Assembly (NCBI GenBank): GCA_964484565.1
Contig: CAZAGG010000001.1
Location: 25,066-89,065 of the forward strand
Direction: 5' to 3'
DNA length: 64,000 bases
From: an uncultured Rickettsiales bacterium
GTDB taxonomy: Bacteria; Pseudomonadota; Alphaproteobacteria; Rickettsiales; CAZAGG01
The position numbers and the translations under genes are program-made. Under the pieces are notes generated by a model. That model saw nothing but the letters and a program-made list of their open reading frames with translations, was not told where the DNA came from and did not search any database. Shown here in pieces: positions 18,075 through 47,470 of this stretch. Numbering within the stretch: the first letter of the stretch is position 1; the number at the start of each line of letters is the position of its first letter.

Positions 18075-18103
18075 GAACAAAACCCAGAGCCAAATACAAA
18101 AAA

Positions 18104-18127
18104 GCCTCACTAAATTGATAGTGAGGC
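18104..18127. terminator. bidirectional rho-independent terminator between the 400-aa orphan and rpmE
   Basis: Perfect 9-bp stem GCCTCACTA / TAGTGAGGC with a 6-nt loop. It is followed by CTTTTATAT on the plus strand and TTTTTTGT on the minus strand. Confidence 0.7.
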
Positions 18128-18164
18128 CTTTTATATATGAGTTAAAAAATAAAAACTTATCTTA

Positions 18165-18440
18165 CTAGTTTTTATTCTCCTCTTCGTTTTTATTCTCTTC
18201 TTCTTTCTTAGCAGAAGATGCAGAGCCAATGCTTCCAAACATATTGTTGAACCTAGCAATACGGCTAGCTTTTTGGTTTACAGACGAGCCGCCGCCATTC
18301 CATGCTGGGTGACTGATTGGGTCAATATCTAATTGAAGGGTATCCCCCTCTTTTCCATAGGTGGAATAAGTTTCAAATTTGGTTCCATTTGTCATGACTA
18401 CAGTTATCTTGTGATAATCTGGGTGAATTCCAGCTTTCAT
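18165..18440 (-). CDS. rpmE: 50S ribosomal protein L31 (no CxxC zinc motif) with acidic/lysine C-terminal tail
   Basis: 91 aa. [10 protein letters not shown]...[13 protein letters not shown] matches L31. The tail ends in [12 protein letters not shown], encoded by an 18-nt tandem duplication. Confidence 0.9.
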
Positions 18441-18598
18441 TGACTTAATACTCTCAGTTTAAGTTATTTTTATAATTACGAACGAGGGTTTCTACTTCAA
18501 GATAACCACAATTGCAAGAAAAATCACAAATCACTTTGACGCACATTTTTTTTAACGATATAGCTAATTGCTAGATAATGATAACAGGGGTCTATATA

Positions 18599-22211: not shown

Positions 22212-24023
22212 ATGCAGAAATACTTTTTATATGGTTTGATTGTCGCGTTGCTTTCTCTAAATTCTGCCAATGCTTCAGTTGGAATCGCAATGTTCGGTGA
22301 ACCTAAGTATAAAGAGGGCTTCAAGCATTTTGAATATGTTAATCCAGATGCTCCCAAAGAAGGTGATATAAAATTTGGAGTAATAGGAACATTTGATAAC
22401 TTAAATCCTTTTATTCTTAAAGGAATTGCCGCAACTGGCAGTGATCTTGTATTTGAGACTTTATTAGAAAAATCAAAGGATGAACCATTTAGCGCATATG
22501 GATTGATTGCCGAAGATATTTCAATTGCTCCAGATAAATCATCTGTAACTTTTAAAATTAGAAAAGAAGCCAAGTGGGAAGATGGCACACAGCTAACCCC
22601 TGATGATGTTATTTTCTCTTTTAACATATTGAAAGAAAAAGGCCATCCCGCATATCGCAGTTATTATAAAGATGTTGCAAATGCCGAAAAAGTTGGAAAT
22701 CACAGCGTGCGCTTTAACATAGCAAATAAAGAGAACAGAGAGCTACCATTGATACTTGGAGATTTGCCAGTTCTTTCAAAGAAATTTTTTGAGACAAATG
22801 ACTTCACTAAAACCACAATGCAAAGAGTTATGGGCAGCGGACCATATAGAGTTGAAAAGGCAGACGCTGGAAGAAGCATCACCTATGTTAGAAGAGACGA
22901 CTATTGGGGCAAAGATTTACCTGTGCAAAAGGGACGTTATAATTTTAGAACAATAACTTATGATTATTATAGAGATGAAACGGTTGCTGTTCAGGCAATC
23001 AAGGCTGGAAGCTATGATATGAGACTAGAAAATATTGCTCGTGTGTGGTCAACAGCCTATGAAGTGCCTGCGGTTAAGGCTGGAATGCTTAAAAAAGAAG
23101 TCATAGAACATCAAGTCCCAAGCGGAATGCAGGCTTTCATTATTAATAATCGGAGAGAGAAGTTTTCCGATATTAACACGAGAAAAGCTCTATCTCTAGC
23201 TTTCGACTATGAATGGGCGAATAAGAATTTATTCTACGGCTTATACAATAGAATGAAGAGTTTTTATACTAACTCGGTTTTTGCAAGTTCTGGATTGCCT
23301 CAAGGAAAAGAGTTGGAAATCTTAGAGAAATATAAAGATAAAATTCCGCCAGAAATATTTGCAGAGGAATATAAAAATCCCGAGACAGATGGTACGGGAA
23401 ATAATAGAGAAAACCTTAAAAAGGCTAGTGAACTTCTTGCAAATGCAGGTTGGGTTCTAAAAAACGGCAAGTTATATGACAAAAATGGCAATCATTTTAG
23501 TATTGAGTTTCTAATAGATTCACCCGTTTTTGAAAGGGTATTTTCAAATTACGTCAAGAACCTTGCGATACTTGGAATTACGGCAAATATTAGAAATGTT
23601 GATAGCGCACAATTTCAAAAACGTTTAGAAGAATTTGATTTTGATATTACCGTCAGGGTGTTTCCTCAATCCCTTTCACCAGGTAATGAGCAAATAGATT
23701 ATTGGCATTCCAGTCGTGCAGATGTTAAAGGAAGTCGCAACTTGGCAGGAATCAAAAATCCTGTGATAGATGAACTTGTCAATAAAATTATCACCGCTAA
23801 GGATTATGACACACTTCTCGCATCAACCCACGCTCTAGATAGAGTTTTGCTGTTTAACCACTATGTAATTCCTAATTGGCAATCAAAATTCTGGCGTATT
23901 GTTTATTGGGATAGATTTGGAAGACCTCAAGTTCCAGCAAAATATGATTTAGGATTTGTTGATACATGGTGGATTGAATCAGATAAAGATGCTAGAATAC
24001 AGGAGTATTTAAAAAGGAAATAA
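22212..24023 (+). CDS. ABC transporter substrate-binding protein, family 5 (YejA/oligopeptide-like)
   Basis: 603 aa with a signal peptide ending SANA. The length and sequence pattern match the cluster-C peptide/microcin-type SBP family. No permease or ATPase genes lie adjacent. Confidence 0.8.
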   Translation: MQKYFLYGLIVALLSLNSANASVGIAMFGEPKYKEGFKHFEYVNPDAPKEGDIKFGVIGTFDNLNPFILKGIAATGSDLVFETLLEKSKDEPFSAYGLIAEDISIAPDKSSVTFKIRKEAKWEDGTQLTPDDVIFSFNILKEKGHPAYRSYYKDVANAEKVGNHSVRFNIANKENRELPLILGDLPVLSKKFFETNDFTKTTMQRVMGSGPYRVEKADAGRSITYVRRDDYWGKDLPVQKGRYNFRTITYDYYRDETVAVQAIKAGSYDMRLENIARVWSTAYEVPAVKAGMLKKEVIEHQVPSGMQAFIINNRREKFSDINTRKALSLAFDYEWANKNLFYGLYNRMKSFYTNSVFASSGLPQGKELEILEKYKDKIPPEIFAEEYKNPETDGTGNNRENLKKASELLANAGWVLKNGKLYDKNGNHFSIEFLIDSPVFERVFSNYVKNLAILGITANIRNVDSAQFQKRLEEFDFDITVRVFPQSLSPGNEQIDYWHSSRADVKGSRNLAGIKNPVIDELVNKIITAKDYDTLLASTHALDRVLLFNHYVIPNWQSKFWRIVYWDRFGRPQVPAKYDLGFVDTWWIESDKDARIQEYLKRK

Positions 24024-24060
24024 TGAAATCACCTAAATTCGGAATAAGGATGAGAAAAAA

Positions 24061-24240
24061 CGCTCCCCCTTTATGGGGGAGCCATGATGAGCAAGGCGAA
24101 GCTGCCGCTCGATTTGGTGGGGTACTACATGCTTTCAACATTCTTTTCAAATGTTTTGAAAGGAATGCGAAAACCCCCACAGAATCGCTTTCGATTGCTT
24201 AGCAATCTTAGCTCTTCCGCTCCCCCATAAAGGGGGAGCG
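24061..24240. repeat. 180-bp MITE-like or sRNA-like element bounded by 22-bp perfect inverted GC-rich hairpins
   Basis: The left end 24061-24082 is CGCTCCCCCTTTATGGGGGAGC. It equals the reverse complement of the right end 24218-24240 (CGCTCCCCCATAAAGGGGGAGCG) over 22 nt. Each end is itself an 8-9 bp GC stem with a 5-nt loop. The interior is much more GC-rich than its surroundings. Confidence 0.55.
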
Positions 24241-24310
24241 TATAATGCTCTGTTTTTTATCTCGAATTGATGTTATAATAACGAAATCACTAAAATTTGG
24301 GAGTTTAAAA

Positions 24311-24808
24311 ATGGCAAAAGATCTTGTTACGGTTAGTAAAAACTATCCTTCAGTCGATACAGTTAGTGAAAAATTGCAGTTACTTTTAGCAGATTCATAT
24401 TCAACACTACTCTTAACCCACAACTATCACTGGAACGTTGAAGGAAGGCTGTTTTATTCCCTGCATAAAATGTTTGAAGAGCAATATAACGAGCTATTTG
24501 CAGCCGTTGACGAAATTGCAGAAAGAGCAAGAGCTTTAGATTCTTATGCTTTTGTTGGGGGTTATCAAGATATGCTTGCATCTACAACTTTTAAAGCGGC
24601 AAAATTGCCTTTTGGAAAAGATGCCGATAAGGTGGCGATGCAGATGGTTGAAAATCTCGTATTAGCAAATGAGGCAATTGTAAAATCTGCTAAACTTGCA
24701 AGAAAAGCAGCCGAGACAGCTGGAGACGATGAAACAGTTGACCTAACTGTTGAAAGAGTAACATTGCATCAGAAAAATATCTGGATGCTTAAAAGCCATT
24801 TGAAGTGA
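24311..24808 (+). CDS. dps: Dps family DNA-protection / ferritin-like protein
   Basis: LLADSYSTLLLTHNYHWNVEG..F..LH..FEEQY.EL...DEIAER is the Dps ferroxidase-site pattern. The start was moved to the ATG at 24311, which has a GGGAG SD 8 nt upstream. Confidence 0.85.
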   Translation: MAKDLVTVSKNYPSVDTVSEKLQLLLADSYSTLLLTHNYHWNVEGRLFYSLHKMFEEQYNELFAAVDEIAERARALDSYAFVGGYQDMLASTTFKAAKLPFGKDADKVAMQMVENLVLANEAIVKSAKLARKAAETAGDDETVDLTVERVTLHQKNIWMLKSHLK

Positions 24809-27306: not shown

Positions 27307-27552
27307 ATGCCACTTTATATCAAAGATGAAGAAGTAAGCAAAATAGCTCGCGAACTAGCAGCTATTAGAGGAGTTAGTATAACTGAAGTTTTGCGAAGTT
27401 CCTTAAAAAAAGAAGCAGATGAAAAAAATAAGGAAAGCTATAATAAATTTCTCGCTAAAATAAAGGTTATTCAAGAACAAGTAGCTGCCTTGCCAGATCG
27501 TGATTCGCGCTCTATCCAAGAAATTGTTGATGAAGTTAATGATGTAAATTAA
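27307..27552 (+). CDS. vapB: type II antitoxin, VapB-like (PSK-operon / Rv0623-like family)
   Basis: 81 aa. MPLYIKDEEV..IARELA...G.SITEV is the N-terminal pattern of antitoxins paired with PIN toxins. Its stop overlaps the vapC ATG (TAATG). Confidence 0.75.
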   Translation: MPLYIKDEEVSKIARELAAIRGVSITEVLRSSLKKEADEKNKESYNKFLAKIKVIQEQVAALPDRDSRSIQEIVDEVNDVN

Positions 27553-27950
27553 TGATTATTGACACATCAGCGATTATAGCAATTCTTCAAAATGAGCATG
27601 ATTATGAAAAATACGCACAAGCTATTTATAATTCACAAGAAAAATATATTTCTTCGGTAAACTATTTTGAAGCTAAAATTGTGATGATTGGTAAGAAAAT
27701 TGACTACATTCAATCTCGCATAGATATACTTTTAATTGAGTCTAATATTGAAGTTTATGAAGTTAATCAAAATCTTGCCAATATTGCCGCAAAAGCCTAT
27801 GAAAAATATGGCAAAGGAAGGCACAAAGCCGCATTAAACTTTGCTGATTGCTTTTCATACGCGCTAGCAAAGCATATGAAAATGCCCCTGCTTTTTAAGG
27901 GCGATGACTTCAGCCTCACTGATGTTAAAAAAGTTAAAATATTTGGGTAA
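27552..27950 (+). CDS. vapC: type II toxin, PIN-domain ribonuclease VapC
   Basis: 132 aa. It has MIIDTSAIIAIL (first acidic residue D4), a later conserved E (YFEAK), and a C-terminal FADCFSYALA...LLFKGDDF motif typical of VapC. Confidence 0.85.
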   Translation: MIIDTSAIIAILQNEHDYEKYAQAIYNSQEKYISSVNYFEAKIVMIGKKIDYIQSRIDILLIESNIEVYEVNQNLANIAAKAYEKYGKGRHKAALNFADCFSYALAKHMKMPLLFKGDDFSLTDVKKVKIFG

Positions 27951-28013
27951 CCTATATGGCATAGTGAAAGGCTGGGGATATATACAACTCACTTTCATCA
28001 CAAAATTGCGGAT

Positions 28014-28120
28014 CGACTTGTTAAACGAAGCCTTAGCGTAGTTTAAATGTGAAGCGATCCAAAGAAACTAGCTTTCTATTTCTGGATCGCCTCATCGCTA
28101 AAGTAAATCACGAAGACAAC
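28014..28120. repeat. GC-rich intergenic repeat, copy X (inverted relative to copy Y at 47262-47362)
   Basis: The 28-nt core CGACTTGTTAAACGAAGCCTTAGCGTAG (28014-28041) matches the reverse complement of 47335-47362 at 26/28 positions. Weaker similarity continues for about 70 more nt. It contains a 13-bp interrupted hairpin (28054-28090, GCGATCCA.AGAAA / TTTCTGGATCGC). Confidence 0.5.
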
Positions 28121-42970: not shown

Positions 42971-43855
42971 TTAACGTCCACTGAGTTCGCGTGCATTTTC
43001 ATCTGATCTAGCTTGCTTTTGCGATGCATATTGTGCGGCGATTTTATATTTACAAGACTCTATTAGCTTTGCTGATTCATCCTCATTAATAACCTTGCGT
43101 TCCTTTAGTGCGTCTATGAGATTATACGCTTGATCTAAACCCCAATCTTTATTCCAAAACATGCTTTTAAGTATCTTCATTTTCGGAAAAGGCTCTCTAT
43201 TATCTGATGGGGCAATTGGGTGAAATGCAAGTAGCTTTAAAACATCTTCAACATTATTTGGGCATTCTGTGCTTGTTTTATAACCTTTATAAAACTGCGT
43301 AGCTTTATCTAGCAGTTTATTATAATAATCTTCACCAAGTTTTTCTTTTATGTAATACTTAGCTGTTTTGCTGTATTTATCAGCTAAATAAATATTCGCT
43401 CCAGCAGCAATAAGAGCTTCAACAATTTCTGTGTGGCCCTCTTGAGCAGCCCTCATTAGTGCTGTATTGCGATCATTAAGATCTGCCCCAGCAGCTATAA
43501 GAGCTTTAACAACTTCTGTATGACCTCCAGTAGCAGCTAAAATTAATGAGTTACTACCAAAATTATTTTTTGCATTAACATCTGCTCCTGCTTTGATAAG
43601 AGCTTCAACAACTTTTGTATACCCTTTAGTAGCAGCCCAGATTAGTGCTGTATAGCCATTATCATCAAATGCTTTAAAATCAATAATGTTTTTAACAAGA
43701 GTTAATAACTCATCTTCTCTTGCTAAAAGCTCTTCCTTATATTCTTTAGAACTTTTGTCTTGGTTTTCATGTTTCTTATAAACAAGATCAAAAAACTCTT
43801 CAGTTCTTTTCTTTACTTCTTCGCTGATGTTAGGTGAGAATTTTAAATTAGCCAT
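42971..43855 (-). CDS. ankyrin-repeat protein
   Basis: 294 aa with at least three or four tandem ANK repeats (GYTALIWAATKGYTKVVEALIKAGADVNAKNN / GSNSLILAATGGHTEVVKALIAAGADLNDRN / TALMRAAQEGHTEIVEALIAAGANIY). These are flanked by non-repeat N- and C-terminal regions. Confidence 0.9.
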   Translation of the reverse strand: MANLKFSPNISEEVKKRTEEFFDLVYKKHENQDKSSKEYKEELLAREDELLTLVKNIIDFKAFDDNGYTALIWAATKGYTKVVEALIKAGADVNAKNNFGSNSLILAATGGHTEVVKALIAAGADLNDRNTALMRAAQEGHTEIVEALIAAGANIYLADKYSKTAKYYIKEKLGEDYYNKLLDKATQFYKGYKTSTECPNNVEDVLKLLAFHPIAPSDNREPFPKMKILKSMFWNKDWGLDQAYNLIDALKERKVINEDESAKLIESCKYKIAAQYASQKQARSDENARELSGR

Positions 43856-47251: not shown

Positions 47252-47261
47252 CTTAGGCTCT

Positions 47262-47362
47262 TCTGATAGCGGACGGCTTTATCGGCGTAATAATCCAAAA
47301 AGCACGATTTTTTCTGAATTGCTTCGCCTTTAACCTACGCCAAGGCTTCGGTTAACAAGTCG
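47262..47362. repeat. GC-rich intergenic repeat, copy Y (inverted relative to copy X at 28014-28120)
   Basis: 47335-47362 (CTACGCCAAGGCTTCGGTTAACAAGTCG) is the reverse complement of the X core with 2 mismatches. Flanking similarity continues leftwards. Like X, it sits between convergent genes. Confidence 0.5.
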
Positions 47363-47470
47363 GCTCAGAGTGGTGAAAATTCCGAAAATCAATGCGTTCA
47401 TAATAAAATGCAGGGGAATGAGCACTTGAGGGAAAGCGGTTTTGAAATTAATATGACTATTTTGTGAATT

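Follow-up and report, generated by a model that had tools for sequence, protein, structure and literature searches.

The window, meaning the whole 64-kb stretch of DNA that was analysed, is compact, carries housekeeping genes and has a G+C content of 37.7%. At the locus considered here all genes are located on the plus strand, in the order putA, the gene of a periplasmic substrate-binding protein (SBP), a foldback element, dps, nadC, icd and a vapBC-like toxin–antitoxin pair. This pair (PSK_trans_fac plus PIN; ~27307–27950, plus strand; 3096–3597 of L001) is found directly downstream of icd. The features of the spacer between the SBP gene and dps are collected in Table 1.

Table 1. Features at the SBP–dps locus (positions in the window; a dot marks features without strand).
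Feature	Position	Strand	Description
Upstream neighbour	22212–24023	+	Periplasmic substrate-binding protein, PF00496 (SBP_bac_5)
Direct repeat, left copy	24019–24042	+	AATAATGAAATCACCTAAATTCGG; overlaps the SBP stop codon
Foldback element	24060–24241		182 bp, extragenic, in the SBP–dps spacer; two hairpin arms plus 136-nt spacer
Left inverted-repeat arm	24060–24082	.	Perfect 23-nt repeat, hairpin in itself
Left hairpin	24062–24069 / 24075–24082 (stem)		Loop TTTAT
Spacer	24083–24218	.	136 nt, 44.9% G+C, self-complementary
Right inverted-repeat arm	24219–24241	.	Hairpin 24218–24240, 9-bp stem, loop ATAAA
T6 run	24253–24258	+	Downstream of the right hairpin
Extended −10 promoter candidate for dps	24271–24279	+	TGTTATAAT; between element and dps
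Direct repeat, right copy	24277–24300	+	AATAACGAAATCACTAAAATTTGG; in the dps 5´ leader, just before the RBS GGGAG
Downstream neighbour	24311–24808	+	Dps, PF00210, ferritin-like; ATG at 24311

Among 5.8 billion proteins, the closest homologues of the two neighbours share ~61–62% identity with the SBP and 59% with Dps, and the names under which homologues are recorded point to uncultured Alphaproteobacteria or Rickettsiales. The exact SBP and Dps proteins are present only in one NCBI contig and in the Logan assemblies of SRR12997673. The homologues of the SBP (~61%) and of Dps (52–59%) occupy other gene neighbourhoods, with no orthologous spacer or empty site among them; at one Dps homologue locus, the spacer upstream of dps measures just 30 nt.

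Elsewhere in the window, an ankyrin-repeat protein is encoded on the minus strand (42971–43855; Pfam Ank, E = 7e-25), which suggests that the organism probably has a host-associated or intracellular life style. A 42-nt direct repeat of 90% identity (32883–32924 and 34240–34281), with a G8/G5CGG tract, flanks a 1.36-kb segment containing an ORF of 380 aa (33055–34197) that has no Pfam match; this segment may be an insertion with att-like repeats or involve a phase-variable homopolymer. Moreover, other intergenic spacers are also high in G+C (41–42%), namely 27951–28166, 47252–47470 and 34198–34254. They have no Rfam match and could contain unannotated small genes or RNAs.

Anatomy of the foldback element

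The arms of the element are complementary at 23 of 23 positions, one end being the mirror of the other across 136 nt. A sequence-only reading of this DNA had described the terminal inverted repeat as perfect over 22 nt, and the repeat proves to be perfect over 23. The left 22-mer, CGCTCCCCCTTTATGGGGGAGC (24061–24082), has its exact reverse complement at 24219–24240, and the same search of the 64-kb window gave no such inverted match in any of 100 shuffles. The arms form, by a wide margin, the strongest inverted repeat of the window. Continuation of the repeat past 23 nt, into the adjoining A and T runs, is not significant, since 844 of 2000 shuffles scored equally.

Each arm is also a G/C-rich hairpin of 8–9 bp, in agreement with the sequence-only reading. 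The left one comprises an 8-bp stem, seven of whose pairs are G–C, and a 5-nt loop (−18.6 kcal/mol), and the right one a 9-bp stem with eight G–C pairs (−20.3 kcal/mol). Hairpins with perfect stems of 7 bp or more, four or more pairs being G–C, are scarce, with about six in all 64 kb.

The spacer is itself organised as a foldback. It contains a central hairpin (24139–24167), extendable to GGTGGGG at 24117 and CCCCCAC at 24180, and one small hairpin per arm; the small hairpins pointed out earlier, AATCG-CTTT-CGATT and ATTGC-TTA-GCAAT, are present at 24183–24206. Global alignment of the spacer with its own reverse complement yields a score of 52, compared with −6.7 ± 13 for shuffled sequences, none of 500 shuffles reaching 52. 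The two halves of the spacer are ~70% alike, with indels. The spacer being self-complementary, the whole element is therefore a single long imperfect palindrome.

The minimum free energy of the element is close to −100 kcal/mol on either strand (z ~ −10), and in 200-nt sliding folds the element falls 8.3 standard deviations below the G+C-corrected mean (non-overlapping windows, only ~3 standard deviations). It is the sole extreme folding outlier in the 64 kb. Taken separately, the interior folds to −45.6 and −48.2 kcal/mol on the two strands, with three G–U pairs on each. Such equal folding of both strands is expected of a palindrome at the DNA level, rather than of an RNA selected on one strand.

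The element also stands apart by composition. Its overall G+C content is 50.0%, and the immediate flanks have 30.6% and 24.6%, values that the interior exceeds as well, as had been observed from the letters alone. For comparison, the other intergenic spacers of the window range from 20 to 42% and its coding DNA stands at 38.1%.

No target-site duplication is found directly beside the arms, which confirms the earlier impression; with the boundary marked by a slash, the flanks read ...GAGAAAAA/A... and ...T/ATAATG. At a greater distance, the element is bracketed by a 24-nt imperfect direct repeat, identical at 20 of 24 positions (83%). Its score was reached by 4 of 2000 shuffles (p ~0.002) and by 12 of 3000 random pairs of genomic segments. 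The two copies stand 17 and 35 nt off the arms, without abutting them, and could represent a duplicated target or leader, a regulator-binding site or a chance match. An ATG follows each copy after ~8–11 nt.

Transcription signals around the element

Six T residues (24060–24055) come directly after the left hairpin when it is read on the minus strand, the full sequence being GTTTTTTCTC. With an 8-bp stem (seven G–C pairs) running into GTTTTTT, this site is predicted to be a canonical intrinsic terminator, as the sequence-only reading had proposed. On the plus strand, the right arm is separated from its T6 run by 11 nt (24242–24252, ATAATGCTCTG). Because of this distance, the right hairpin is expected to act as a weaker, non-canonical terminator, having the features of an intrinsic terminator only in part. 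A weak alternative hairpin (24235–24251) is located directly in front of the plus-strand T6 run.

The TATAAT that had been noted at the right end of the element does exist (24241–24246), without a usable −35 hexamer. dps is more likely to be transcribed from the candidate extended −10 promoter of Table 1. The sequence GTTATAATAAC at 24271–24281 forms a 5-1-5 palindrome that overlaps this candidate −10 box, and it may be an operator for a dps repressor. Within the element, a weak promoter-like site, TTGAAA-18-CAGAAT (24156–24185), agrees with the consensus at 9 of 12 positions. A consensus scan of the minus strand near the element gave no promoter-like site, the best candidates being TATTAT at 24280 and GTAACA-17-TAAACT at 24307, with a best match of 8 of 12 positions.

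In its G/C stems of 8–9 bp, its 5-nt loop and the T6 run after the left hairpin (minus strand), the element resembles intrinsic and bidirectional terminators. It differs from the bidirectional type in that two sequence-identical hairpins stand 136 nt apart, each at the exit side of a long palindrome. A bidirectional terminator of the usual, classical kind is found in the same window at 18104–18127 (AAAAAA-GCCTCACTA...TAGTGAGGC-CTTTTAT), where it opens the largest intergenic spacer of the window (18075–18577, 503 nt).

The minus-strand terminator could belong to a small RNA, the second of the two interpretations offered by the sequence-only reading. Such an RNA would be ~190–245 nt long, starting at or to the right of the right hairpin and ending at the left hairpin plus U6; its start could possibly fall inside the dps 5´ leader, in which case the transcript would be antisense to the dps RBS. 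Two parts of this proposal stand: the locus has a single canonical intrinsic terminator, formed by the left hairpin and GUUUUUUCU, and no minus-strand gene lies upstream of it for ~4 kb. Furthermore, non-coding RNA genes typically stand out from A+T-rich intergenic DNA as G+C-rich, highly structured islands, and the sites at 24280 and 24307 offer weak promoter candidates. Other observations count against it. Besides the weakness of these promoters, Rfam gives nothing at gathering thresholds across the whole window and only sub-threshold noise at E ≤ 10 for 23900–24400, so the check for a known RNA was negative. The interior folds alike on both strands, and the terminator may be a mere mirror image made by the inverted repeat. 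The nearest relatives share only ~60% protein identity. Overall, a minus-strand small RNA is the main rival of the reading favoured below, although a rather unlikely one.

Copies, relatives and comparable elements

At up to three mismatches, neither a second copy of the 22-mer or its hairpin nor any other foldback was detected in the 64-kb window. The hairpin was also scanned as the pattern GCTCCCCCWWWWWGGGGGAGC, which occurs at 47 loci in 185,579 reference genomes and at 73 loci in JGI metagenomes. All of these loci are lone hairpins in unrelated organisms, often beside A or T runs, and this adjacency indicates a terminator-type position. No relative of the spacer was found at the 47 and 73 loci, in collections that do not include the source genome. 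A blastn search in distant mode against plasmids and phages likewise gave no match.

The protein level was covered in the same way. Three reading frames are open across the element, and openness on both strands is a by-product of its G+C-rich palindromic sequence. Among the ORFs of the element that were looked up, the only one on record has 59 aa (24023–24202), gene-called in the NCBI record and forming a singleton cluster. The idea that the interior might be the remnant of a known gene was not upheld, as the open frames have no match in Pfam or NCBIfam and no homologue: a phmmer search of 1.84 billion representatives returned, apart from the 59-aa ORF, just a spurious tandem-repeat protein of 2,760 aa, and a five-frame profile of the element, run against 5.8 billion proteins, only its own 59-aa ORF. 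In 5.8 billion protein clusters, no called ORF overlaps another copy of the element and no other ORF shares peptide words with its five frames. Finally, a Pfam scan of 30 ORFs of the window detected no transposase or recombinase, including PF01797 (Y1/RAYT).

A different type of evidence comes from assembly ends. The Logan contigs carrying the SBP gene (L049) and dps (L001) both break inside the element, the former ending at 24113 and the latter starting at 24212, 98 nt apart; the contigs that end in the element are SRR12997673_202394 and SRR12997673_142242. Logan contigs are built from 31-mers, with k-mers seen once discarded, and are longer than 150 bp with all their 31-mers distinct (PMC12424806). 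Since no 30-mer branches within the window itself, the breaks must be due either to a gap in coverage or to other sequence among the reads. By our own reasoning, contigs run k−1 = 30 nt into a shared segment, which would then be 24084–24241. On the right, this hypothetical segment would stop exactly at the outer limit of the right arm; on the left, it would begin 2 nt beyond the inner limit of the left arm. This hints at a second copy, differing at 24083 and in its flanks, with which the breaks would fit. It is also possible that they reflect low read coverage over a strong palindrome, or an allelic variant at 24114–24211. The far end of the dps contig falls inside the ankyrin gene, with no repeat visible there in the window.

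Foldbacks of this design are known from REPINs, which combine a pair of inverted REPs with a hairpin-forming spacer of lower conservation (PMC3337134). REPINs are REP doublets mobilised by RAYT transposases (Bertels & Rainey; PMC3337134). The present element has two REP-like palindromes in inverted orientation, with arms complementary at 23 of 23 positions and asymmetric loops (TTTAT/ATAAA) that mark the orientation, and its spacer forms a hairpin and is less conserved than the REP-like units. Its extragenic place and the lack of a target-site duplication are also REPIN-like. However, REPINs are found in tens to hundreds of copies per genome, as opposed to one in the 64 kb studied here, and they come with a RAYT gene, usually one with REPs at its flanks, which was not seen among the 30 window ORFs scanned. 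The spacer of 136 nt exceeds the 34–110 bp listed for Pseudomonas fluorescens SBW25, and the REP-like units are perfect-stem, terminator-type hairpins with no similarity to any known REP.

The sequence-only reading had considered the element MITE-like, and this was upheld for its architecture, size, non-coding nature, foreign G+C content and foldback spacer. The 23-nt perfect terminal repeats, the length of 182 bp and ORFs without family or homologue are as in MITEs derived from DDE transposons. It was not upheld for copies, target duplication, relatives or transposase: the only direct repeat is the 24-nt one, 17 and 35 nt off the arms, and neither copies nor a parent IS were found in the window, in the 185,579 reference genomes and the JGI metagenomes as scanned with the hairpin pattern, or in the plasmids and phages, the source genome lying outside those collections.

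Among well-known bacterial examples, the Correia elements of Neisseria are non-coding MITEs of ~100–200 bp, with terminal repeats of ~23–26 nt and a TA target duplication. They lie between genes, where they can contribute promoters or terminators and give rise to RNA duplexes open to cleavage by RNase III. The element described here is similar in size, non-coding nature, perfect terminal repeats and intergenic place. In contrast, its arms are themselves hairpins, its interior is palindromic, and neither an adjacent duplication nor a multi-copy family or parent IS was found. ERIC/IRU sequences of enterobacteria and the palindromic elements of Rickettsia are multi-copy families defined by sequence. 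An imperfect palindrome of ~100–180 bp is common to them and to the present element, whose host, like Rickettsia, is alphaproteobacterial, but no extra copy of the latter was found and the likeness is one of description only.

Where they were sought, neither further copies nor a matching transposase was found, nor was the target duplication that MITEs carry next to their ends. The element is therefore not classified as a REPIN or a MITE; it can be said to be built like one. Extragenic palindromes with terminator-like ends are already known as a kind, and the present one, which has no sequence relative anywhere searched, appears to be single-copy.

Possible origin and role of the element

Membership of a currently multi-copy REPIN/RAYT or MITE family, with further copies outside the 64-kb window, has about the same standing as the small RNA and is, in our view, rather improbable. 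The architecture is identical to that of a REPIN, and the combination of perfect arms with a spacer ~70% symmetric has the look of a young copy. The Logan contigs of the SBP gene and dps (k = 31) point the same way, as they end inside the element in a window free of branching 30-mers, and breaks caused by a repeat would give a shared segment with edges near the arm ends. Against this, the 64 kb hold not even a second single hairpin, the searches of 5.8 billion protein clusters and 1.84 billion representatives led back to the element's own ORF (plus the spurious tandem-repeat protein), and the 30 window ORFs scanned include no Y1 or other transposase. Moreover, the breaks have the other possible causes named above, and the dps contig ends, at its far side, in a gene with no visible repeat.

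A more specific version, to which we give somewhat less credit still, is that of an undescribed REPIN-like 'peel-and-paste' family with terminator-shaped REPs, in an uncultured, probably host-associated alphaproteobacterium with a compact, A+T-rich genome. The mobile unit would then be the spacer plus the 3´ hairpin (24084–24241), cut just 3´ of each hairpin. This unit is the one that would follow from the Logan contig ends, and it agrees with the excision reported for Pseudomonas REPINs.

The element might instead never have been mobile and have arisen when the SBP terminator was duplicated locally in inverted orientation, for instance through template switching, with an interior that decayed and terminal hairpins that were kept by selection. 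Its single-copy state wherever copies were sought is compatible with such an origin, as are the interior arms, ~70% alike with indels next to perfect stems, and an interior comparable in its divergence to the flanking direct repeat (83%). Three features make it a quite doubtful option. The spacer, at 45% G+C, is unlike the local intergenic DNA (20–35%); the identity of the arms extends to their loops and non-stem bases; and the hairpin with the good U-run points away from the SBP gene.

An inverton, that is, an invertible promoter switch, or a gene for a small protein of 48–59 aa framed by the hairpins are both very unlikely. The inverted repeats do flank a promoter-like site, but this site is weak (9 of 12 positions) and no recombinase occurs among the 30 window ORFs scanned; by our reasoning, k = 31 contigs interrupted by an inversion at the arms would end at 24082 or 24089 rather than at 24113, and a simple circle junction (24241 to 24084) would also place the breaks elsewhere. 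As for a small protein, the three open frames and the gene-called 59-aa ORF are explained as a by-product of the G+C-rich palindrome, open on both strands, and have neither a Pfam/NCBIfam match nor a homologue in the protein collections. An integron attC site was rejected, given that the ends AAAAAAC ... GTTTTTT do not fit GTTRRRY, the R' core site that an attC palindrome carries opposite R'' (RYYYAAC), and neither an array nor, among the 30 window ORFs, an integrase is present.

The best reading, which we hold tentatively, takes the element to be an inserted foldback of single or low copy number, with ends that would keep the SBP gene insulated from dps. The element consists of two inverted REP-like G/C hairpins joined by an imperfectly palindromic spacer and appears to be non-coding. 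It would have entered the SBP–dps spacer by insertion or inverted duplication, an origin suggested by a G+C content foreign to the locus and by the 24-nt direct repeat on its two sides. A mobile origin is no more than possible, as the 64-kb window showed no adjacent target duplication or second copy, and the 30 ORFs scanned included no transposase.

Once in place, the element would be crossed by transcripts from either side, which would stop at the hairpin on the far side. RNA of the minus strand would end at the left hairpin plus U6, and read-through from the SBP gene would end, less efficiently, at the right hairpin, with the U-run 11 nt beyond the arm. By the terminator consensus, on which termination and insulation are judged, the element would thus behave as a two-way insulator between the two genes. 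The SBP mRNA would probably also gain a very stable 3´ structure (~ −100 kcal/mol) with a possible perfect duplex of 23 bp, and dps would be driven by its own extended −10 promoter (24271–24279). Two points count against the insulator. The SBP gene would need the plus-strand terminator, which is the weaker of the two, and the canonical one faces a strand without an upstream gene, a configuration that fits a small RNA better.

Should the element be no more than a single-copy palindrome that ends in terminators, it would be a curiosity of this locus, illustrating how a single inserted foldback can provide stops for transcription from both sides and keep a transporter gene apart from the stress gene dps where the genome is compact. 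A minus-strand RNA antisense to the dps leader, if real, would add a new regulator to the control of an oxidative-stress gene. The element would matter more if copies and a cognate transposase exist elsewhere in the genome: a little-known lineage of Alphaproteobacteria would then have yielded a new REPIN-like family, an example of mobile hairpins that double as terminators.
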